NCBI GenBank assembly: GCA_947259165.1
Contig: CAMYKY010000010.1
Span: 34,433 to 98,432, forward strand
DNA: 64,000 nucleotides
Origin: an uncultured Acidobacteriota bacterium
Lineage (GTDB): Bacteria; Acidobacteriota; Vicinamibacteria; Marinacidobacterales; SMYC01
Reading direction: 5' to 3'
Made by a program: the position numbers and the translations under genes. Shown piece after piece: positions 1,927 through 49,524 of the stretch (its first letter is position 1; every line of letters starts with the position of its first letter). A model generated the notes under the pieces. The model was not told where the DNA came from and made no database searches. It worked only from the letters and a program-made list of their open reading frames with translations.

Positions 1927-4164
1927 TCACCTTCCCTGCCGGAAACGGAACCGCTGGACCCAGCGAATCTTGACAGGAACGTCGTACTTGGTTGCCGGGT
2001 CCCAACGCCACCGGCCTACCACATCGGTAACCGCCTCGTCGAAAATCTCGCCAGCCGACTCCTGAACTCGGATATCGGTCACGGCCCCGGTCTCGTCGAC
2101 GATGAAACTCAATTCAACGACACCCTCCAGCCCGTCACGCCGCGCACGCTCGGGATAACGCACGGCAGGACACTGGATGCATTCAGGGTCTACGACCCCC
2201 GCGGTGCCCCGCTCAACGAGCTCGCCCACCTCGACTCGCGGAGCCTGGGGTTCGGTGGGCGCCTCCGGAGTCGACGCGACCTCGCCAACCCGTTCGGTCA
2301 AAACCGCCTCCACCTCCACCGTACGTCCCGGGCGGGCGCGCACAGTGTCTTCCCAGGGAAGAAATCCGTCGCGGACGATGCGCAATTTGCGCTCGCCAGC
2401 CTGAACCTGCAGCCGATCCGTCGGTGTGACGCCGACCGCGCGGCCATCGATCTCCACCTGCGCACCGGCAGGGTTGCTGACGACGCGGACGCGCGCAGGC
2501 GGCGGCGGCTTGGGTGGCTCGGGCTGCAGCGTCACTTCGAGTGTGGCAACGGGAGCGTCAATGCTCAGCTCCGCCGTGAGCTCCTCGGACTGAAAGCCTT
2601 CGTGGCGCACCAGAAGATCGTAAGCCGCAAACGGCAGCTCGCCGAGCTCGAGCGGTGTCGTGCCGCGCTCCTCGCCGTCGACGACGACAGTGGCTCCTTC
2701 GGGCCCGCTGGTGATGAACAAGCTTCCGCTCTCGACGACGTCGACGGGCGCAGGCTCGGGGGGGATCACCGGATCCGATTGCTTCTCACCGCTGCCACCG
2801 GCGAGAAAGACAGCCAGGAGCACTACGAGAGCCACAAGCACGGCGCCACCCGCGAGTGCGAGTTTCTTTTGATCGAAGGGAGGCCGACGAGGACTCATTC
2901 CCCCGGAAATTTCCTTGTCGAGGGAGGCCGGCTCCGCTACGTCAACGGCGATGAGAGTCTCGTCAAGTTGGGCACCCGCGTAGAGCGTTTCCTCCGCCTC
3001 CTCGGCGACATAGACCGTTTCCTCTCCCGTGATCGCTGGGAGAGGGACGCTGGCGATAGTCTTCGTGCCATCAACTTCGGGCACGCTCGCTCCTGCGAAC
3101 GTCGCGGTCGCACCTTCGAGAGCCTCATCCCGGTTCGCTGCGGCCGACGGGAGATTGACCGTTTCGTCGCTGGCCGAGCTCTGGGCATCCGCAGCGGGGA
3201 CGAGCGTACCCGTCACCGGAGACGTAGGTTTTTTCGTGTCGGTCGCACTCGGCGCTTTTTCGAGAAAATTCGCCGGGTCTTTGACGATGATCGTCTCGCC
3301 TTCCAGGGCACCAAACCAAGACCCCAAACAGTGCTCGAGCTGCTCGACGAACATCGCCGCAGTCGGGAATCGCTCGAGGGGATCCTTGCTGAGCACCCTC
3401 GAGAAAACCTGATGCCATTTGTCCGGAAGAAGGCCCAAAATCTCGAGACCATCCGGGTGCACGGGATCTGAGTGCACGAGCTTGTACAGAATCGAGGTCA
3501 CGTTGTTGCCCGGAAACGGCTGCTGACCGCTGAGCATTTCGAAGGCCACGACTCCAAGCGAAAAGATATCGGTTCGCCCGTCCAGGTCTTCGCCCATCGC
3601 TTGTTCGGGAGACATATAGCTGGGCGTTCCCATCATCAGTCCGGAGTTCGTCATCTCCGCGTCCATGAGCTTCGCGATCCCGAAATCCGTGACTTTGACC
3701 TTCTCCCCCCCGAAGACGATCACGTTCGAGGGTTTGATGTCGCGATGGATCACGCCTTCGGTGTGCGCGTAGTCCACGGCGGCCGCAATCTGGGAAACGA
3801 GACCGACGACGACTTCTGGGCGGAGCCGCTCCCCCTCGAGTAGCTCGGCGACGGTCTGCCCCTCGACAAACTCCATCGCAAGCCAAGGAACCTGATCTTC
3901 CGTATGCCCGACATCGTACAAAGTGATGATGTTGGGATGGGACAACCGGCCCGCGGTACGCGCCTCCGTTGCGAAGCGCTCGAGAAACGCCTTGTAGTCA
4001 GGGCTCTGGGGAGGCACGTCGAGGCGTAGCGTTTTGACCGCGACGGGCCGTTTGATGAGCGGGTCGAACGCTTTGTAGACCGCGCCCATGGCACCGAAGC
4101 CAACGGCTTCGATGATCTCATAGCGATCGATCTTCTTGGGGATCTCGCCTCTCGATTCGCTCAA
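1927..4164 (-). CDS. transmembrane Ser/Thr protein kinase with two PEGA domains and a TonB C-terminal domain
   Basis: Hanks kinase motifs are present (GFGAMGAVYKA, VAVK, HRDIKPSNVIV, DFG, SPE). One TM helix follows (LALAGGAVLVALVVLLAVFLAGG). Two PEGA-like repeats (ITSGPEGATVVVDGEERGTTP and VVSNPAGAQVEIDGRAVGVTP) and a C-terminal TonB_C-like fold (GLEGVVELSFIVDETGAVTDIRV...KIRWVQRFRF) complete the protein. Confidence 0.85.
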   Translation of the reverse strand: MSESRGEIPKKIDRYEIIEAVGFGAMGAVYKAFDPLIKRPVAVKTLRLDVPPQSPDYKAFLERFATEARTAGRLSHPNIITLYDVGHTEDQVPWLAMEFVEGQTVAELLEGERLRPEVVVGLVSQIAAAVDYAHTEGVIHRDIKPSNVIVFGGEKVKVTDFGIAKLMDAEMTNSGLMMGTPSYMSPEQAMGEDLDGRTDIFSLGVVAFEMLSGQQPFPGNNVTSILYKLVHSDPVHPDGLEILGLLPDKWHQVFSRVLSKDPLERFPTAAMFVEQLEHCLGSWFGALEGETIIVKDPANFLEKAPSATDTKKPTSPVTGTLVPAADAQSSASDETVNLPSAAANRDEALEGATATFAGASVPEVDGTKTIASVPLPAITGEETVYVAEEAEETLYAGAQLDETLIAVDVAEPASLDKEISGGMSPRRPPFDQKKLALAGGAVLVALVVLLAVFLAGGSGEKQSDPVIPPEPAPVDVVESGSLFITSGPEGATVVVDGEERGTTPLELGELPFAAYDLLVRHEGFQSEELTAELSIDAPVATLEVTLQPEPPKPPPPARVRVVSNPAGAQVEIDGRAVGVTPTDRLQVQAGERKLRIVRDGFLPWEDTVRARPGRTVEVEAVLTERVGEVASTPEAPTEPQAPRVEVGELVERGTAGVVDPECIQCPAVRYPERARRDGLEGVVELSFIVDETGAVTDIRVQESAGEIFDEAVTDVVGRWRWDPATKYDVPVKIRWVQRFRFRQGR

Positions 4165-7334: not shown

Positions 7335-7522
7335 CGTGACGTATTTTCCGGGGTGTTTGCGGCGCGCAGTGGTGTGTTGCAAGAAAACTGCCAGCAACCA
7401 AAGCTCATGAAATGAGCTACTTGGACCTGGGGATGGGGGCAAGTTCCCCTAGGGGCGTGTTAAAACTTTAAACCCGCTGAGAATCCAGCACACCGATCCC
7501 CACTGCTGAAACGGTGACCTTT

Positions 7523-7611
7523 CGTGCCCGTGTCCGCGTGCGTGCCCGTGCCCGATAAATCTTGGTCACGGGTTTTCCTGTGAGTGCTTTTCTTGGTCGG
7601 GCACGGGCACG
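7523..7611. repeat. hexamer-TIR element, copy A: (GTGCCC/GTGTCC)n left arm and (GGGCAC)2 right arm
   Basis: Left arm cgtgcccgtgtccgcgtgcgtgcccgtgcccg, a 44-nt AT-richer core, then right arm cgggcacgggcacg. It sits between the symporter stop and the fliA start. Confidence 0.7.
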
Positions 7612-7620
7612 AAAAGCCAG

Positions 7621-8841
7621 CTACGGCGGCGTCAATTCATGCTCAGCAGCCCCGACCCAGGTCGCGTTCACCAGCTGGCCTACTAGATTCGTCGACGAGC
7701 GCAGCATGTCCAGGGGACGTTCGACACCGAGCACGAGCGCCGCGCCTTCGATCGGAAGTCCTAGGGCGGCGAGAAGGATCGTCAAATTGACGAAGCTCGC
7801 CGCCGGAACGGGCGCTACCGCGAGCGAAGACAGCATCGCGGTCACGATCAAGCTCGTCAAGCCCTGGGCTCCCAATGAGGCGCCGTAGACTTGCGCAATG
7901 AACAACACCGAGATGGCTTGATAGATAGCACTGCCGTCCCGGCCAATCGCCGCACCCAAAGGCAGCACGAAGCTCGCGACTCGTGACGAGAGCCCCATAC
8001 TCTTTTCCATAGCCGCCATCGAGACGGGAAGGGCTGCGGCGGTCGAACAGGTCGCAAAGGTGATCAGAAGCGGCGGCTTCGCCGCGTCGAGGAAACGACC
8101 CACACTCTGCCGCGCCACCACCCGCAGCATCACTCCGTACACGACAACGATATGAACAACGAGCGCGAGCACGACGACACCGGCGTAAGCAGAAAGACTC
8201 CAGAGAATCGAGAGGCCCGATCGACCGACGACCGCAGCCATCAAACCGAAGACACCGAACGGTGCGAGCTGCAAGATCCAACCGGTGATCTTGACGAACA
8301 TCTCCGCAACGCTTCGCGAGAGATCAACGACAGGCTTGCGCTTATCAGCAGGGAGCGCACTCGCGGCAAGACCGACGAGAATCGAGACGAGCAAAACTTG
8401 AACGACGTTGCCCTCGACCGCCGCTCGGATTGGATTATCGGGAACGATACCAACGAGCGTGTCGACGAGAGACTCTCGCGGCGCATCCGGATCCACGTCT
8501 GGAACTTCCTGGCCTTCGAGAAGGCTCGCACGCGCAGCAGCCGACATCGTCGTTCCTGGGCTCAACAACGACCCGATCGAAATCCCGATGATCAGAGCGA
8601 GGAACAGACTGACGAGAATGAATCCGAACGCCCGCAGCCCCATCCGCCCCAACGCTGCCCGTCCTGGTAATCCGGCTATCGCCACGACGAGAGACGCCGC
8701 AACCAAAGGAACGATCACCATCCGAATGAGCTTGATGAACAGCGTCCCCAAGGGCTCGAGGATGGAGGCGGCTTCGCCGAAATACGCACCGACGAGGACA
8801 CCGGCAACGAGCCCAATCGCGACGCGGTTGTGAATCTTCAA
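7621..8841 (-). CDS. dicarboxylate/amino acid:cation (Na+/H+) symporter, DAACS family (GltP-like)
   Basis: Eight or more TM segments with characteristic DAACS motifs (PLVAASLVVAIAGL, VVDLSRSVAEMF, AIGRDGSAIYQAISVLFIAQVYG, MLRSSTNLVGQ). The start is placed at TTG 8841 (LKIHNRVAIG); the track ORF runs to ATG 8991. Confidence 0.8.
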   Translation of the reverse strand: MKIHNRVAIGLVAGVLVGAYFGEAASILEPLGTLFIKLIRMVIVPLVAASLVVAIAGLPGRAALGRMGLRAFGFILVSLFLALIIGISIGSLLSPGTTMSAAARASLLEGQEVPDVDPDAPRESLVDTLVGIVPDNPIRAAVEGNVVQVLLVSILVGLAASALPADKRKPVVDLSRSVAEMFVKITGWILQLAPFGVFGLMAAVVGRSGLSILWSLSAYAGVVVLALVVHIVVVYGVMLRVVARQSVGRFLDAAKPPLLITFATCSTAAALPVSMAAMEKSMGLSSRVASFVLPLGAAIGRDGSAIYQAISVLFIAQVYGASLGAQGLTSLIVTAMLSSLAVAPVPAASFVNLTILLAALGLPIEGAALVLGVERPLDMLRSSTNLVGQLVNATWVGAAEHELTPP

Positions 8842-12825: not shown

Positions 12826-13016
12826 GGAGTCTCATTCGGCTATCGGCTATCGGCATCCGGTTGATGCTCGGTTGACGAGAGTCTTTTTTCCACACACCTG
12901 AGCTCGATAAACAATCTTGGCCTTCCCGAAGGCTTGCGCGCCGCGTCGAGGCGCAGTCGCTGGGGCCGGCAAATAAATCCGGACCGAGCAGTAACCGAAT
13001 GCCGATAGCCGAATGA
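12826..13016. mobile_element. MITE-like element with ~25-bp heptamer-repeat terminal inverted repeats (family 2, copy 1)
   Basis: Left TIR cattcggctatcggctatcggcatccggtt. Right TIR aaccgaatgccgatagccgaatgag, near-perfect reverse complement. The ~130-nt core (ctcgataaacaatc...gcgcgccgcgtcgaggcgcagtcg) is homologous to the copy at 29707..29873. It lies between the metH stop and a convergent lipoprotein gene. Confidence 0.75.
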
Positions 13017-13035
13017 GACTGAGCTGAAAAGGTTG

Positions 13036-18786: not shown

Positions 18787-18974
18787 AGTTTTGAACAGCC
18801 TCGGGTCCGAGACGACCCCCTCGGCCCGACTAGCCTCCCCTGAGGTCTCGTCCTTCTCACCGAGACTTCCGGGGAGGCCCTCCCTCCTGTAGCGGGCGTC
18901 GTCTCCTCGAGGCGCCCGCGCTTGTTTCGGACAACTCCTTCGGCTTCATGTTCCATCGTGCACGGCGATGCAGT

Positions 18975-19090
18975 CAAAGGCAAAGAGAGACGGGGATAGG
19001 AGGGGATGTGGGGATAAGACAAGCTCTGTGCAACGCCCCATCTCCAAACTTCGGATCATGTCCATCCCCTAATCCCCTTTGCCTTTGACG
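18975..19090. repeat. long imperfect inverted repeat upstream of the sigma-54 activator gene
   Basis: gtcaaaggcaaagagagacggggataggaggggatg ... catccatcccctaatcccctttgcctttgac. The arms are ~33 nt with a ~45-nt spacer, about 90 nt upstream of the ATG at 19179. Confidence 0.5.
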
Positions 19091-19178
19091 ACCTCCCAGT
19101 CAGCCGTGACGGCGGGCCGTTGGCGACGGAAATGAGAGTCTCGTATACTAAGTCTTTGAAAACGAGTCACATCGTGTC

Positions 19179-23600: not shown

Positions 23601-24217
23601 ACGGCCAAGAAGCGGTCGAAATCTTCAAACGCCAGGCGCTTTCGCTGGTCCTGCTGGACATGGAGATGCCAGTCCTCAATGGATTCGAAGCCGCCCGCAC
23701 CATTCGAGGGCTTTCCGACGGGGATACGATCCCCATCATCGCCATGACCGCCCACAACGACACGCGCGAGCTCGCCCGCTGCACGGAAGCGGGCTGCACG
23801 ACGGTGATTCAAAAGCCGCTGGAGCGCAAGACGTTGAACGCGCTCGTCGCCAAACATGTCAAGGCCCGCGCCGATGACGAGCTCGAAATTCCCGTCGAAT
23901 CCGACTCTCGACCAGCACCCGCGGGGGTCGTCGCAGTGGATCCGGACATCCAGGACCTCGTACCTCGTTTTCTCGAGAACCAGCAAAACAACGCCGGGCT
24001 GGTACTCGAGCTCCTCGAAAACGAAGACTTCGCCTCGATCCGCCGGATTGGGCACAACATGAAAGGCACCGGCAAAGGCTACGGGTTCGAGATCATCAGC
24101 TCTCACGGCGCCTCACTGGAGCAAGCCGCGTCGCGCTCCCGCGCTGAAGATGTGCGACAAATCGCAACCGAGCTAGCCACCTACCTCGCCAACGTCCGTT
24201 GGCGGCCTAGCGGTTAG
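20690..24217 (+). CDS. hybrid sensor histidine kinase (PAS/PAC - HisKA - HATPase - 3x REC - HPt)
   Basis: GTG start 23 nt after the ntrC-like stop, with GGGGA upstream. PAS repeats, then HisKA (MMSHELRTPLNAILGMTEL) and HATPase (GTGLGLNISRSLVDLMGG). Three receiver domains (ILLVEDNPDNQKLA..DLIVMDLMMP; ILVTDDAPENRLIV..SLVLLDMEMP; plus one more). C-terminal HPt (HNMKGTGKGYGF). The upstream 363 nt of track ORF 20327.. overlap the ntrC-like gene. Confidence 0.85.
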   Translation: MIKSTSVRREREVAARIRELGRMLADPNATLQTHELGSDVLLALLDGERRYRQLMEHSGAFICSHDLGGVLLSVNQSGAKSLDYQQDEMVGRNLNEFIDIQQQDQFDEYLRLVAIEPSVSGVMSVRRRDGESRTWAYHNSRFQEPGQEPCVLGHAQDITEMKQLEETLKLTQFSVDRAADSVFWIAADGQLRYVNDAACDYLGYTRDELLSISIYDVDITLERAEWPAHWEQVKQLERFTTETIYRTKDGRTFPVEVTVNFLSFRGLEYHCVFAREISERKEAEDAIIATTARLEGLLENLQAGILFEDDNRRVVLANQTLCQILDIPVPPSALAGADSRTLLDQCKDLFPAPAAFLERVESILLSHTLVRNEELTLDDGRVLARDFIPIVTQNYRAHLWQYRDVTERKRAESEILNAKLEAEKANAAKSSFLAMMSHELRTPLNAILGMTELSLDTKLNKEQHEFLQTIQTNSENLLRLIDDVLDLSKIEANRMDLEQIPFDPRELAEEVAESLNVRAASRDVELVLDIDPHLPMEIVGDPKRVRQVLVNLVGNAVKFTEQGSVELCVEVEDWKPGDRVDLVFVVTDTGIGIPRDKQDKLFSRFYQAESSTTRKFGGTGLGLNISRSLVDLMGGRIDFTSKAGEGSTFRVNISTESPTDTEPNSARHRAQLAEAKAKVLLWVPQEKRRRTLARLFIAWGLEVELVSSLDELDAKLAAAGTRQTLTVLEHRPNQLDLGALRKLRQPPLRELLLLTSIGASTSAVLTETCPHLVVKPTRQQRLAETIARALGLRAQATAASVSDPAPSPAVAEGSAPFRILLVEDNPDNQKLAARILQGAGARVDTAENGREAVTMAEHTLYDLIVMDLMMPVMDGFQATGQIRAGEAEPNRVPIVALTAHATEGFRDRCLKAGMDDYLSKPFKKERFLAVVDQWVDRRPVILVTDDAPENRLIVKRFLMLGGDYRLLFAANGQEAVEIFKRQALSLVLLDMEMPVLNGFEAARTIRGLSDGDTIPIIAMTAHNDTRELARCTEAGCTTVIQKPLERKTLNALVAKHVKARADDELEIPVESDSRPAPAGVVAVDPDIQDLVPRFLENQQNNAGLVLELLENEDFASIRRIGHNMKGTGKGYGFEIISSHGASLEQAASRSRAEDVRQIATELATYLANVRWRPSG

Positions 24218-24317
24218 GCATTTCTCCAAAGAAAGATGGCGTTTCGAGGCGGGTTGAAGCCCAAAATTCCGTCCTATCAGAGAGGGATTAGACGAGCACG
24301 ACTCCTAGCGTCTGCTG

Positions 24318-26246
24318 GTGCTCTCACGAAAAAGATCGTGCCCGTGCCCGCGTGCGTGCCCGTGCCCGAAAAGCGAGCCTTCCGGATTTAGTCGGGGACG
24401 GGGACGGGGACGGGAACGGGAACGGGAACGGGAACGGGAACGGGGCACCCGAACCACGGACATTCTTCGCGGAGTGTTTGGGTATCGCACTTTTCGCGGC
24501 CAACAGGAGTCGGTCATCAACCGCATCGTCTCCGGTGGGAACGCTCTGGTGTTGATGCCCACCGGGGGCGGCAAAAGTCTGTGCTATCAGATCCCAGCGA
24601 TTGCCCGCGACGGGGTCGGAATCATCATTTCGCCGCTCATCGCGCTGATGCAGGATCAGGTGGCGGCTCTCACGGAGGCTGGAGTCCGGGCGGCGTTCGT
24701 GAATTCCAGCCTCGAGCGCCATGTGGCAAGTCGCGTCGAGGACGACATGGTCGCGGGTCGATACGATCTGGTGTACGTCGCGCCGGAGCGCCTCGCCACC
24801 GACTCGTTCGTCAAACGATTGGACGATACCCGCTTGGCGTTGTTCGCCATCGATGAAGCGCACTGCGTGAGCCAGTGGGGCCACGACTTTCGGCCCGAGT
24901 ACCGCAAGCTCGACTTGTTGCACCAACGCTATCCCAACGTCCCGAGAATCGCACTCACCGCAACCGCTGACGCCCCAACTCGGGGTGAGATTCTGACGCA
25001 CCTCGCGTTGTCCGACTCCGACGTGTTCGTCGCCGGCTTCGATCGTCCCAACTTGCGCTACGAGGTCGTACCCAAAGCGAACGGCCGCCAACAACTGTTT
25101 CGATTCATCCGGAGCCGCCATGAGGGGGAGAGTGGCATCGTCTACTGCATGAGTCGCAAGAAGGTCGAGCAAACCACGGAAGTGCTGATAGGCGAGGGGG
25201 TGCCGGCGCTCCCCTACCACGCCGGCTTGGACAAGTCAGTGCGCCAGTCCCATCAAAGGCGGTTCAAGGACGAGCCCGGGATCGTCATCGTCGCCACCAT
25301 CGCCTTCGGTATGGGAATCGACAAGCCGGATGTACGATTCGTCGCCCATCTCGACCTGCCCAAGAGCCTCGAGGCTTACTATCAGGAGACCGGTCGGGCC
25401 GGACGCGACGGGCTGCCCTCGGACGCATGGATGACCTACGGCTATGGAGACGCCGTGTTTATCCGACAAATGGTCGAGCGTTCCGACGCGCCTGCGGAGC
25501 GCAAGCGTCTCGAACAGCTCAAGTTGAACTCATTGCTCGGCTACTGCGAGAGCGCGGAATGTCGACGCGCAATCTTGCTTCGTTACTTCGGTGAAGAGCA
25601 CGCGGGAACGTGCGGCAACTGCGATACCTGCACAAATCCCGTCGAATCGTTCGATGGCACCACGCAAGCCCGCAAAGCGCTATCGAACGTCTACCGCACC
25701 GGCCAACGCTTTGGTGCTGCGTATCTTGCCGACATCCTCGTGGGCGCGTCCGACCCGCGGATCGAGCGCAATGGACACGCGCGCATCTCGACGTTCGGCA
25801 TTGGCGACGAGTTCGACCGGAACGGGTGGATGAGCGTGTACCGCCAGCTCGTAGCAGCCGCACTCCTCTTAGTAGAGCCGGAGCACGGAGGCCTGTCGCT
25901 CTCCGATCGAGCGGCGCCTCTGCTGAAAGGCGACGATACGTTCCGCTTGCGTCGCGACCCGACGCCGGTCAAGGGCAAGTCGCAACCACGCACCGGTTCA
26001 ACCGTCGATACAGTGCTGAGCTCATCCGCAGACCAGAAGCTGTTCGAAGCGCTTCGACAAAAACGCCTCGAGCTCGCGAAATCACAGCGCGTTCCGCCCT
26101 ACGTGATTTTCCACGATCGCACGCTCCTCGAGATGGCCCGCGTCCGTCCCCGCTCGCTGTCCGCCCTAGCCGACATCACCGGCGTGGGTGCCACGAAGCT
26201 GGACAAGTACGGGGATACGTTTCTTGAGTTGCTGAAGGATGAGTGA
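24318..26246 (+). CDS. recQ: ATP-dependent DNA helicase RecQ
   Basis: DEAH helicase motifs ([30 protein letters not shown]). Helicase-C and the Zn-binding RQC ([20 protein letters not shown]). C-terminal HRDC domain. The only in-frame start upstream of the conserved FGYRTFRG block is GTG 24318, so the repeat element is part of the ORF or the start is non-canonical. Confidence 0.9.
24337..24447. repeat. hexamer-TIR element, copy B, lying inside the 5' end of the recQ reading frame
   Basis: Left arm cgtgcccgtgcccgcgtgcgtgcccgtgcccg. 24-nt spacer. Right arm (cggggac)3(cgggaac)4cggggcac. The recQ frame reads it as [11 protein letters not shown]...[16 protein letters not shown]. Confidence 0.75.
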
Positions 26247-26275
26247 ATCCGACACCGAACTCCCAAGCTGAGATC

Positions 26276-26416
26276 GTTCCCGTTCCCGTTCCCGATTGAT
26301 CTTGCTCCTGGCCACTTTTCGGTTCGAAACCGAGCTATTTCGAGCCGCAGGCGGCGACCGAACGAGTTCGATTCAGCATACGTCGGGAACGGGAACGGGG
26401 ACGGGAACGGGGCACC
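26276..26416. repeat. hexamer-TIR element, copy C: (GTTCCC)3 ... (GGGAAC)n
   Basis: Left gttcccgttcccgttcccg. A 90-nt core containing ggttcgaaaccgag. Right cgggaacgggaacggggacgggaacggggcac. It lies 30 nt after the recQ stop and 26 nt before the selenoprotein-candidate ATG. Confidence 0.8.
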
Positions 26417-26441
26417 TTCATTCATGCTATAGATCTCAGCC

Positions 26442-27215
26442 ATGCCAGAGTACAACTACAAAACCTTCCCCCTCGACGCCGATATGCACGACTTCGTGCA
26501 ATTTCCCAATATCGCGCGGGTTGGGACCAAGGCACCGGACGGAGTGCTTATCGATGCCAAGGACGGCAGCGAAGTGCGGCTCGGGGCGCTCTACCGTAAT
26601 GGAGTGAGCGTCATCGAGTTCGGCTCGTTCACGTGACCCTACTGCGCGCAGGCGGGACCCGCGCTCGAGTCCATGGCCACCGAGTTTCGAGAATACGACT
26701 GCCAGTTCGTTTTCGTGTATACCCGCGAGGCGCACCCCAGCGATCGTTATCCGGGCCATGACAACATCGAGCGCAAGCTCGCGCACGCGCGGGCGATGGT
26801 GGAGCAGCTGGGCTTCGCGCGTCCGATGCTCGTCGACGATCTCGACGGGACCGTCCATCATGAGTTCGGACGGCTCCCCAACATGACCTATATCGTCAAC
26901 GCGGGCGGAACGATCGTCTATCGGGCTGCCTGGACCGACCCGCGTACGATTCGTGGCGCCTTCGAGCAAATTCTGTTCGAGCGAGGCGAGAGACGCGAAA
27001 AGAGACGGATCACCCCCTACTATATGGAGTGGCTCCCCCAACGCACCAACGACGACGTCCGGTTCGTCCAGGAGCTGTTCGAGCTCGGGGGCGGCCGGCC
27101 GGTCGACGAGTTCATCACGGCGATGGACAACGTGGAAGGGAATACGGCGACGAAGCAAATCAAACAGTGGTGGGAGAGGCGACAATCGCAACCCGAGACA
27201 ACCACCGAAAGTTGA
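26442..27215 (+). CDS. candidate selenoprotein: thioredoxin-fold, iodothyronine-deiodinase-like protein with in-frame UGA (Sec) at 26634-26636
   Basis: Track ORFs 26442..26636 and 26673..27215 are in the same frame and are split only by that TGA. The read-through peptide is ...VIEFGSFT-U-PYCAQAGPALESMATEFREYD..., close to the deiodinase/Dio-like motif FGSxT-U-PxF and in a redoxin-like context. A GC hairpin (GCGCG-caggcgggacc-CGCGC) begins 8 nt after the UGA, as expected for a bacterial SECIS. Confidence 0.55.
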
Positions 27216-32462: not shown

Positions 32463-32561
32463 AGGCTTTTCACCACGCAGGCACGCAGCTCACGGAGGGT
32501 GCACGGAGAAATTCGTGTTTCCCTCCGCGGTCTCCGTGCCTCCGTGGTGAAAAAACGGAGT

Positions 32562-41471: not shown

Positions 41472-41660
41472 GGTGTGACTGGTATCTCCGGATCGAAACT
41501 CGGGTGCAATCCCTTAGTGTAGACCGGTCGCGGGCACGATGCCACGACTAGCGAGACTTTCGACAATGCCCAGGTCAGCTCCACGACCTTCTAACGTTAA
41601 TTTTGAACCGAAGGTTGGACCTGTCCGGCTCGGTTGTGCTCCCGCCGAAGAGAGTTCTTC

Positions 41661-41791
41661 GTTCCCGTTCCCGTTCCCGTTCTCGACTAAGAATGTCCAG
41701 ACCCGTCGGCGAGCGGAGCTCGCCGCGATCAGTCCGTGGTCACGTGAACATCTTTAATCGGGAACGGGAACGGGAACGGGAACGGGAAACG
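41661..41791. repeat. hexamer-TIR element, copy D: (GTTCCC)3-4 ... (GGGAAC)5
   Basis: gttcccgttcccgttcccgttctcg, then a 73-nt core with internal hairpin cggcgagcggagctcgccg, then cgggaacgggaacgggaacgggaacgggaaacg. It is intergenic, upstream of the divergent gdh start. Confidence 0.8.
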
Positions 41792-41961: not shown

Positions 41962-42759
41962 TCAGTTGTTGGCGTGTTGTATGTGGACCGCTCGGTACGG
42001 CGAAACGAGGTCGACCACGACACCCTCGATCCGCGCCTCGGCGCCGACGGCCGGAGCGCTCAAACCCGGCGATAACGCGAAGCACAAAGGGACGCTTCCG
42101 CGAACGAGAAGACTCATTTCGCACCCGGTTGCCGGTGTCACAACCATCCCCGTCGCATGAATCTCATCGTCGATACGTAACTCAGAGGCAACGAGTCCGC
42201 CACCACCGTCCACACCCCGAGCTCGTAGCGGCAGCCCCAGATGGTCTCCCAGCAACGAGGACAACTCTGACGGCGGCAAGCGTTCGACGAGTGCAGGCTC
42301 GTTGTCGACTCGAGTTTCGTTGGTGACGATCACGAGCGTGTCTTTGACTCTTACCGCCACGACACAATCGAGCTCGGGCGGGCAGCTTTCGATTCCAAAA
42401 AAGAGCCCGCGCACCCGAGCATCGTCCCCATCGGAGCCGCTCGATCCCCTGTTGCTGTCATCGTCGTTGCTGTCATCGTCGTCGCTGTCATCGTCGTTGC
42501 TGTCATCGTCGTCGCTGTCATCGTCGTCGCTGTCATCGTCGTCGCCGTCATCATCCGGCGAATCGCCGCTAGCATCGTCGCCATCGCTATGCGCTCGCGA
42601 GCTCGCCAGTGCTACACCGGCGGCATCACCACTCACGATCGAGGGCGCAGTCGCGCTGACGCCGTCGTCACCGCACCCCACGAAAACGAGCGCAGCGAAC
42701 ACCGCGGCAACTACCATCGCAATCCATTTCATTTGCCGTGTCATTTCCATTTCGGACAT
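41962..42759 (-). CDS. lipoprotein with poly-acidic (DDDDSDDDDSN)n repeat region
   Basis: Lipobox LVFVGCG. About 45 residues of Asp/Ser repeats are encoded by 15-bp tandem DNA repeats (gttgctgtcatcgtc, ~7 copies, 42447..42555). A C-terminal globular domain follows. Confidence 0.6.
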   Translation of the reverse strand: MSEMEMTRQMKWIAMVVAAVFAALVFVGCGDDGVSATAPSIVSGDAAGVALASSRAHSDGDDASGDSPDDDGDDDDSDDDDSDDDDSNDDDSDDDDSNDDDSNRGSSGSDGDDARVRGLFFGIESCPPELDCVVAVRVKDTLVIVTNETRVDNEPALVERLPPSELSSLLGDHLGLPLRARGVDGGGGLVASELRIDDEIHATGMVVTPATGCEMSLLVRGSVPLCFALSPGLSAPAVGAEARIEGVVVDLVSPYRAVHIQHANN

Positions 42760-43020
42760 GTCTCCTCGGGTCCGGTACGGAGCCCAAACCGACACCCGTA
42801 TGAACCCAGGCTACGGACGCCGGCGACGCACTAGGTCAATCCCTCTATGCGGCAGAGTCATTGTGCGTCGACCACGCCGAACGCGCGATGATCCGCGGCA
42901 CGCTTTTGGGGTGAGGTTGCTAACGCCCGGCCGGTGAGGAGCGTCACGGACACGAACGAAAAGGCCGAGGCAGTCTTGTTAAACTAGCGGCGTGACGCAC
43001 CGCGATCTCTAGACAATCTT

Positions 43021-49069: not shown

Positions 49070-49128
49070 CGAGCACACCACGAAGACACGGAGCCGCAGC
49101 GCGGAAAGTCCGCAACCCACTGCTTTTT

Positions 49129-49281
49129 CAACGCAAAGGCGCAAAGTCGCGGAGACGCAAAGGTCGTCGAGTATGAGCTTCTGCAGACGATGATTTGACA
49201 CTTGTGAAAGAGACATGCGCCGGAACACGTCCGCCGCAAGGCGCTCACTTTGCGCCTTTGCGCCGTTGCGCCTTTGCGTTG
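49129..49281. mobile_element. MITE-like element with 16-bp perfect TIR built from GCGCAAAG repeats (family 3)
   Basis: Left arm caacgcaaaggcgcaaagtcgcggagacgcaaaggtcg. Right arm cactttgcgcctttgcgccgttgcgcctttgcgttg. The terminal 16 nt are exact reverse complements and the octamer GCGCAAAG is repeated 3x per arm. It overlaps the 5' end of a truncated gene. Confidence 0.7.
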
Positions 49282-49524
49282 AGTTCTTCTTTTTGTAGCG
49301 AGTTCTTCGATGTCGGTAGTGCGGAGGGAGCACGGAGACAAGTCTTTGAATCGATCGCCCTGAACCTCACGATGTACCTTCAGCACGCGATGGTGCACGC
49401 GGTACCTCTTTTGTGGCGTCCTCATCGCGTCCATCACGCCGATCTCGACGTCGATGTCACCACCGGAGCGCGGTTTCACGTTATCGAAGTCGTCCTCTAC
49501 GCAATAACCCGCCGCGCGGCCTAG
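49195..49524 (+). pseudogene. C-terminal fragment of a fatty-acid hydroxylase/sterol desaturase-family protein
   Basis: Only the last ~70 aa of the family, including the His box HRVHHADLDVD, are present. The reading frame begins inside the 49129..49281 element. Confidence 0.45.

Follow-up and report, generated by a model that had tools for sequence, protein, structure and literature searches.

Where does translation of recQ begin in a genome in which a dispersed repeat occupies the place of the gene's native start? The question is raised by a 64,000-nt stretch of DNA from an uncultured Acidobacteriota bacterium (hereafter, the window), in which a repeat with tandem-hexamer arms, termed element E2, lies directly in front of recQ. 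The recQ-frame open reading frame (ORF) runs from GTG 24318 to 26246 on the plus strand and comprises 642 aa. An initial annotation, made from the letters of the window, had described E2 as a palindromic repeat inserted in frame into the 5' coding end of an essential helicase. It proposed that either the repeat is translated from GTG 24318 as the N-terminus of RecQ or initiation is non-canonical, for example at an ATT. We examined these proposals by comparing the locus with those of relatives, by analyzing the protein and its homologues, and by characterizing the element itself; the features discussed are collected in Table 1.

Replacement of the native recQ start region

The closest relative, whose RecQ (P0002; locus L001) is 86% identical, has the same upstream kinase gene followed by a short spacer and no element. 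When the window was compared to L001 with blastn, homology stopped at 24215, the stop codon of the kinase gene, and picked up again exactly at 24447, so that 231 nt of the window stand in place of 63 nt in L001. In L001, ATG 2379 and TTG 2391 are preceded by GGGAGGG and give M..SETRATEILRRVFGY, and in the relatives at 81% protein identity (P0003/P0004; loci L002 and L004) a TTG start preceded by GGAGG gives M[GN]ETVSR.PTEIL..VFGY. The alignment with relatives that the initial annotation had called for thus shows three recQ genes that start normally, each with a GGAGG-type ribosome-binding site and none with a repeat-encoded extension. E2 occupies the place of the relatives' ribosome-binding site, start codon, and first 4–7 codons, for which there is no counterpart downstream of E2, and no homology to RecQ is found upstream of the element. 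What had been taken for an in-frame insertion is therefore a replacement of the native start region. The conserved RecQ block does begin right after the element, as had been noted, and alignments to RecQ structures in the PDB (best matches, D. radiodurans and E. coli RecQ) start at ORF residues 45–47, so that roughly the first 44 residues of the ORF are foreign. The kinase–recQ–selenoprotein gene order is kept in both L001 and L002, which indicates that the contig join itself is right.

Downstream of the junction, the gene is intact. All five domains of the bacterial RecQ set (DEAD, Helicase_C, RecQ zinc-binding, RQC, and HRDC) score above their Pfam cut-offs, and the ratio of nonsynonymous to synonymous substitutions (dN/dS) is 0.09 at a dS of 0.9, indicating purifying selection. 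Branch rates show no acceleration, with 26 amino acid changes specific to the window and 29 specific to L001. That the helicase is essential, as initially stated, is not established, and recQ is dispensable in E. coli. The complete motif 0 (L-x3-F/Y-G-x3-F-R/K-x2-Q) is encoded at 24462–24506, and its Leu is included only if translation starts upstream of 24465. This residue, four before the F of FGY, is Leu in all 117 homologues with enough N-terminus, and the residue at −5 is I, V, or L in 115 of them. The median number of residues before FGY is 13 among homologues; calls at the V are limited to this gene and P0002, and no other homologue starts fewer than five residues from FGY. Since the motif-0 Leu is invariant and the gene shows no relaxed constraint, the functional start is expected upstream of 24465, which leaves GTG 24318 or ATT 24462.

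Both members of the initial pair of proposals thus survive. GTG 24318 is indeed the only ATG, GTG, or TTG between TAG 24306 and E2. The further claim that no such codon lies in frame between the element and the conserved block holds for 24447–24461, but GTG 24474, the V of RGVFGY within the block, had been overlooked. It is here that the database protein (P0001, 100% identical, 590 aa) begins. This missed third option would remove the invariant Leu, and for that reason its inclusion strengthens the original either/or. The public call of P0002 is also at an internal GTG (VFGYRSF...), despite the in-frame ATG 2379 and TTG 2391 upstream (L001:2379–2429), and is likely a mis-call.

Non-coding alignments with the relatives are weak and were used qualitatively only. 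A MAFFT global alignment of the window and L001 across E2 was misleading, and blastn was used instead; a base-level reconstruction of the insertion point was given up, the alignment of 24291–24335 with the relatives' Shine-Dalgarno/TTG region being too weak. ATG 24236 was dropped as an ancestral recQ start, since it is out of frame, its ORF stops in the E2 loop, and the sequence around it is a better match to the relatives' 5' leader; this ORF could be an upstream ORF. L002 carries a degenerate hexamer element of its own upstream of recQ (L002:~3790–3880), after a response-regulator gene and ~120 nt before an intact GGAGG-TTG start, and elements may land repeatedly in this spacer.

Table 1. 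Positions of features at the recQ locus and of hexamer-armed elements in the window
Feature	Position	Strand	Remarks
TAG, last in-frame stop upstream of the recQ frame	24306..24308	+	Codon-by-codon reading
GTG, sole canonical in-frame start upstream of E2	24318..24320	+	642-aa product with repeat-encoded tail
Out-of-frame 51-codon ORF from ATG	24236..24391	+	Ends in E2 loop; no Pfam family match
E2, whole element	24336-24446	.	Family copy between histidine-kinase gene and recQ
E2 left arm	24336..24368	.	T + CGTGCC CGTGCC CGCGTG CGTGCC CGTGCC CG
E2 loop	24369..24392	.	24 nt; TAG 24389-24391 ends the out-of-frame ORF from ATG 24236
E2 right arm	24393..24446	.	(CGGGGA)3 (CGGGAA)5 CGGGGC; nine G-tracts on the sense strand
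Codons TRTTDILRG	24447..24473	+	Homology to relatives (L001, TRATEILRR) and solved RecQ structures picks up again at this point
ATT, rare-start candidate	24462..24464	+	Product MLRGVFGY...; compare homologue P0032 (MLETVFGY)
CTT, Leu of RecQ motif 0 (L-x3-F-G-Y)	24465..24467	+	Invariant, 117/117 homologues
recQ as publicly called	24474..26246	+	Start GTG 24474, 590 aa; all five RecQ Pfam domains intact
E1, CGTGCC type	7522-7612	.	31 nt past the stop of the 7643-8281(-) gene; folding z -4.5/-5.3
E3, CGTTCC type	26274-26414	.	Starts 28 nt past the recQ stop; right end GGGAACGGGGCACC as in E2; z -4.9
E4, CGTTCC type	41659-41790	.	Between two minus-strand genes; folding z -9.7/-10.7

Candidate starts of RecQ

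The codon used by ribosomes has to be inferred, and so does the ranking of the candidates. The leading one, which we favor tentatively, is GTG 24318, with E2 translated as an N-terminal tail of RecQ. It is the only canonical codon upstream of 24465. A prediction of mRNA structure near the start, which the initial annotation had also suggested, placed all three candidates in fairly structured RNA and gave GTG 24318 the lowest opening energy, at 11.4 kcal/mol, compared with 13.3 kcal/mol for ATT 24462 and 15.0–15.7 kcal/mol for GTG 24474 (5 to 16 kcal/mol for ten reference starts of the window). E2 lies in the kinase–recQ spacer, where the relatives carry their GGAGG site, TTG or ATG start, and first codons, and the native initiation region has been lost. 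Because the hexamer arms contain no stop codons, the recQ frame is open by default back to TAG 24306, with GTG 24318 as the next start. On this reading, the repeat would be translated as a low-complexity tail of ~45 residues (CPCP...RGRGRERE) ahead of a normal RecQ. Expression of RecQ would probably be weak.

Several observations weigh against a start at GTG 24318. The openness of the recQ frame across E2 is at the chance level and is no evidence of translation: the hexamer arms are stop-free in every frame, four of the six frames across E2 are open, and among 102 family elements the commonest count is six, about half having at least four. Of the proposal that the element is translated as the RecQ N-terminus, the ORF from GTG 24318 stands and translation itself is a candidate reading. 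That one of the nine codons separating TAG 24306 from E2 is a start codon is unremarkable (about 1 in 3 by our own estimate), and the recQ frame reads the right arm with A-ending codons (GGA, GAA) in a GC-rich genome. In the 12 longest element-spanning ORFs, which come from GC-rich loci, the flanking translations are rich in R, A, G, and P and look like non-coding frames, for which reason real genes spanning family members were rejected. No Shine-Dalgarno sequence precedes GTG 24318, ATT 24462, or GTG 24474, sequences of the GGAGG type being used by the relatives' recQ and by several genes of this window; a GGAG at GTG 24474 overlaps that codon itself and is not usable. The public gene call chose GTG 24474. 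Identity to L001 over 24447–24473 is 78%, compared with 50% at 4-fold sites, which speaks for a start upstream of 24465 and fits either continued coding or a recent event; this conservation and the unaccelerated rate would be equally expected if the rearrangement were recent. Finally, the collections hold a single assembly of this lineage, which gives no cross-check of the junction. A degenerate-codon DNA pattern for the same junction had 0 matches in metagenomes, a protein-guided search for other strains returned nothing above 66% identity, and the protein database contained only the 100% copy and the 86% relative.

A comparable situation is found in the over-extended ORFs of GC-rich genomes, where stop-poor upstream sequence likewise lets an ORF reach an accidental start. 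At least 40 residues precede FGY in 10 of 119 RecQ homologues, some with obvious repeat peptides (P0053). Here, in contrast, no normal downstream start that keeps the conserved N-terminus remains, and so the extended recQ ORF cannot simply be dismissed. At another family locus (L062), a gene with the product MHYFDY... starts two codons past the element, and its ORF is open far upstream.

Next in our ranking, though unlikely, is that E2 is wholly an untranslated spacer or 5' leader and that RecQ is made from GTG 24474 as a 590-aa protein lacking its first helix and the motif-0 Leu. The codon is canonical, P0001 starts there, and family elements elsewhere are non-coding. It is already GTG in L001 and hence was available as a fallback, and the motif-0 residues that contact ATP in the E. 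coli RecQ structure (the Y of FGY, R, and Q) all lie downstream of it. However, such a start would delete both the invariant Leu and the conserved I/V from a gene without relaxed constraint, no homologue starts so near FGY except this gene and the probably mis-called P0002, and the site combines the highest opening energy of the three with the unusable Shine-Dalgarno sequence. Rather improbable, in turn, is that recQ is unproductive after a recent knock-out of its initiation region, or that the junction was misassembled across repeat arrays and the true start is normal. All three candidate starts lack the Shine-Dalgarno sequence seen in the relatives, and E2 looks like a hybrid, with a left arm of the CGTGCC type and a right arm of the GGGAAC type, the latter ending in the same GGGAACGGGGCACC as E3 beyond recQ; deletion or assembly collapse between two elements could yield such a hybrid, and there is one assembly and no close relative that could serve as a check. 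Against this stand the intact 590-codon body with all its domains, the low dN/dS and unaccelerated branch, the conserved synteny in support of the contig join, and the fact that hexamer miscounts leave the frame unchanged, though repeat arrays are error-prone in metagenome assemblies.

The rare start ATT 24462 would give a RecQ of normal length with motif 0 kept and E2 as a 5' leader; we rank it last of the four, as more improbable still. It lies in frame directly before the invariant Leu, so that all conserved residues are retained, its product resembles P0032, and its use would explain why ATT CTT (24462–24467) is identical in L001. Yet bacteria very rarely initiate at ATT, and do so inefficiently, E. 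coli infC and pcnB being the known cases, and GTG is a far better initiator. The site has no Shine-Dalgarno sequence upstream and an opening energy above that of GTG 24318, and initiation there would leave the conservation of the five codons 24447–24461 unexplained. For annotation, the consequence is that the automatic call at GTG 24474 probably drops an invariant residue of the catalytic core, the alternatives being a repeat-encoded tail or a rare start. The case illustrates how dispersed stop-free repeats can create or destroy gene starts. If the long form from GTG 24318 is made, a selfish or structural repeat would now provide a conserved DNA-repair helicase with its N-terminus and initiation site, and with built-in frame-preserving length variation.

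A dispersed family of hexamer-armed hairpins

E2 belongs, as a degenerate copy, to a dispersed, non-coding, REP-like type of hairpin element that is not specific to recQ. The hexamer pair CGTKCCCGTKCC has 26 matches in the window, compared with 2.9 expected (0/100 shuffles), and a structured pattern of left arm, gap, and right arm identified four elements, E1–E4, compared with 0 expected and none in shuffles. Each reads 5'-(CGTKCC)n-loop-(GGMACG)n-3' on both strands, and each lies between co-directional genes. E1, E3, and E4 fold as long hairpins (z −4.5 to −10.7). E2, with folding z-scores of −0.9 on the sense and −2.1 on the antisense strand, is a poor palindrome, so that the earlier description of a palindromic repeat is apt for its family and much less so for the element itself. 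Tandem Repeats Finder reports 5.3 copies of a CGTGCC-type hexamer at 24337–24368 and 8.7 copies of CGGGGA/CGGGAA at 24393–24444. Because the left arm is of the CGTGCC type and the right arm of the GGGGAC/GGGAAC type, the two are not complementary at the fourth position of each unit, and one mismatch per hexamer leaves E2 without a strong hairpin. This broken hairpin may have arisen by decay or as a hybrid of two elements, or it may relieve a block before recQ.

E2 (24433–24449) and E3 (26401–26414), which flank recQ, share the end GGGAACGGGGCACC in direct orientation, and this shared end might be the trace of a recombination or duplication in which recQ was involved. E3 is absent at the corresponding site in L001 and L002. 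Neither E2 nor E3 is seen to be flanked by a target-site duplication; the relatives' "empty" sites are too diverged for base-level comparison. No terminator-like site or promoter was found around E2 (23900–24700 was scanned for terminators), and neither E2 nor the flanks of the family show the GC-rich hairpin followed by a U-tract that marks an intrinsic terminator.

Across genomes, the structured pattern was found at more than 112 loci from at least 47 genomes of many phyla, with a locus GC content of 37–78%. Hosts include Planctomycetota, Gemmataceae, many Chlamydiae/Parachlamydiales, Candidatus Sulfotelmatobacter and other Acidobacteriota, Myxococcota, Coxiellaceae/Legionellales, Verrucomicrobiae, Longimicrobiales, Thermodesulfobacteriota, and Bdellovibrionales. 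The 32-nt left arm TCGTGCCCGTGCCCG[C/T]GTGCGTGCCCGTGCCCG, nearly identical in E1 and E2, reappears with hardly a letter changed in Coxiellaceae and Chlamydiae genomes, and one 30-nt hexamer arm is found alike in Chlamydiae (about 37–40% GC) and Planctomycetota (>70% GC). Loops, on the other hand, are lineage-specific and track host composition. In two loci of the uncultured Chlamydiae MFD01275.bin.2.9 (L051:136–1111 and L063:1728–2030), the right arm, or the loop with the right arm, forms long tandem arrays, e.g., (GGGCACGGGCACGCACAC)n, which indicates that arms can expand massively.

With a search pattern that did not demand arm complementarity, the variable arm position was found to covary: among 122 elements, it is G:C in 101, T:A in 17, and mismatched in 4, E2 among the latter. 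The median distance from the upstream gene's stop codon to the element is 35 nt. Flanking genes are arranged in tandem at 36 loci, convergently at 21, and divergently at 9; gene maps in GC-rich loci are heuristic, and the low-GC subset agrees (17, 8, and 3, respectively). On both strands, the flanks are T-rich 5' and A-rich 3', opposite to what an intrinsic terminator would show. Since the arms covary, the elements sit behind stop codons, and divergent promoter regions are avoided, transcription of the hairpin at the upstream gene's 3' end is likely. Family elements normally occupy the 3' untranslated spacer directly behind a gene, where, we infer, they act as DNA or RNA hairpins. The data point to REP-like protection or punctuation of mRNA, or a DNA cruciform, as candidate roles; alternatively, the family may be a selfish element of the REPIN type or the MITE type (miniature inverted-repeat transposable elements), its arms recognized by an enzyme.

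Searches for a known counterpart or a carrier were negative. Rfam gave 0 matches at gathering score across the whole window, and no transposase was found in its 64 kb. Among ORF clusters within 2.5 kb of ~120 copies, there was no linked transposase, and the only recurrent neighbors were generic paralogous families (kinases, ABC ATPases, and GTPases); at two-element loci, nothing recurrent lies between the elements. Viral contigs scanned for the element yielded 0 matches, and hence there is no evidence of a phage vector. Literature searches by repeat sequence or hexamer words returned only unrelated primers and motifs, and a keyword search returned REP/REPIN papers and nothing with hexamer arms. 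With no Rfam family, literature match, or linked transposase, the family appears to be of more interest than the recQ case, and its mechanism of spread or maintenance is open to test.

Known systems resemble the family or E2 in part. Rickettsia palindromic elements (RPEs) reportedly lie in frame inside protein-coding genes. As in E2, a palindromic repeat then stands in the open frame of a conserved gene without breaking it and, if translated, adds a peptide without ancestral function. RPEs, however, have conserved protein on both sides, whereas at recQ homology is found only from 24447 onward; E2 has no ancestral coding sequence upstream and replaced the start region. Correia elements of Neisseria are MITEs that remodel the expression of neighboring genes. 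With MITEs, the family shares terminal inverted repeats around a variable core, a large number of intergenic copies, and insertion by gene starts that changes the 5' leader. It differs in that E2 and E3 show no visible target-site duplication, no parent insertion sequence is known, and the arms are arrays of varying copy number.

REP/REPIN elements are the closest described kind (Di Nocera et al. 2013, PMC3733652; Bertels & Rainey 2011, PMC3116915). Like them, the family consists of short, multi-copy, imperfectly palindromic intergenic elements that form hairpins, E2 itself folding poorly, and that lie mostly just past stop codons and rarely between divergent genes; like REPINs, its members have two inverted arms around a spacer of ~25–90 nt in a hairpin of ~100 nt. 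REP units are occasionally found inside annotated ORFs, intragenic units being given in PMC3733652, where CGTC-1/-4 are also equated with RPE-6/-4. GTAG/CGTC-tagged REPs are short tagged stem-loops (Di Nocera et al. 2013, PMC3733652). In contrast, the arms of the family are tandem hexamers rather than a single self-complementary stem-loop of 5–13 bp; they start with TCGTGCC or TCGTTCC and carry neither the unpaired GTAG/CGTC tag nor a CCA tail. No RAYT or TIRYT gene was found beside any of the ~120 copies. Moreover, REPIN preprints describe REPIN-RAYT systems as passed on mostly by vertical descent, whereas the family has the same arm in very distant phyla together with lineage-specific loops.

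On the recQ sense strand, the G-rich right arm of E2, which can be written (GGGGAC)3(GGGAAC)5, constitutes a textbook G-quadruplex motif. Among 80 recQ loci elsewhere, a two-unit arm lies upstream in one and any G-quadruplex motif in three, and a recQ-specific association of the element or of such motifs was rejected as a general rule. A more far-reaching proposal, which we think very improbable, combines two parts. The family would be an undescribed cross-phylum hairpin class (Planctomycetota, Chlamydiota, Acidobacteriota, Myxococcota, Legionellales/Coxiellaceae, Verrucomicrobiota, and others) whose GC-rich arms are kept identical by sequence-specific machinery or function while the loops drift along with the host genome. 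The recQ copy would have been exapted both as a start codon with a length-variable tail, frame-safe because hexamer slippage never shifts the frame, and as a G-quadruplex for a G-quadruplex-unwinding helicase, a possible autoregulatory loop. Given that the 80 other loci lack such an association, the link between quadruplex and helicase is a low-probability curiosity.

Other repeats and a probable selenoprotein gene

Further intergenic hairpins with tandem-repeat arms are present in the window at 12828–13020, 18962–19100, 32467–32553, and 49128–49282, mostly just past stop codons. Their arm units are TCGGCTA heptamers, CAAAGG, and CGCAAAGG octamers, the heptamer and octamer arrays lying at 12828–13020 and 49128–49282; repeat arrays seem to be this genome's general means of building post-gene hairpins. 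A 15-nt unit, GCTGTCATCGTCGTC, is repeated 6.6 times at 42454–42552 on the minus strand, inside an ORF without a Pfam family (41962–42795, minus strand). Read on the coding strand, the GCTGTCATCGTCGTC array would encode an acidic repeat of the DDDDS type.

Downstream of recQ, 26442–27215 on the plus strand forms a single frame with an in-frame TGA (26634–26636) in the motif VIEFGSFT-U-PYCAQAGP. The TGA and both its flanks are conserved in L002 and L004, where the gene has been called as pieces of 64 and 176 aa. The product has weak Pfam matches to T4_deiodinase and AhpC/TSA, and a palindrome (26624–26669) follows the TGA; probably, this is a deiodinase-like selenoprotein of the thioredoxin fold with a selenocysteine insertion sequence (SECIS) hairpin. 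No tRNA-Sec was found in the window. A TATAGATC motif is conserved at 26425–26441 and at L002:5850–5866, ~8–10 nt before the selenoprotein ATG and without a Shine-Dalgarno sequence, and may be a −10 box that yields an mRNA with no leader or a very short one. L002 and L004 have a similar CGTCTCTTATAG motif upstream of recQ, as may the window at 24271–24282.

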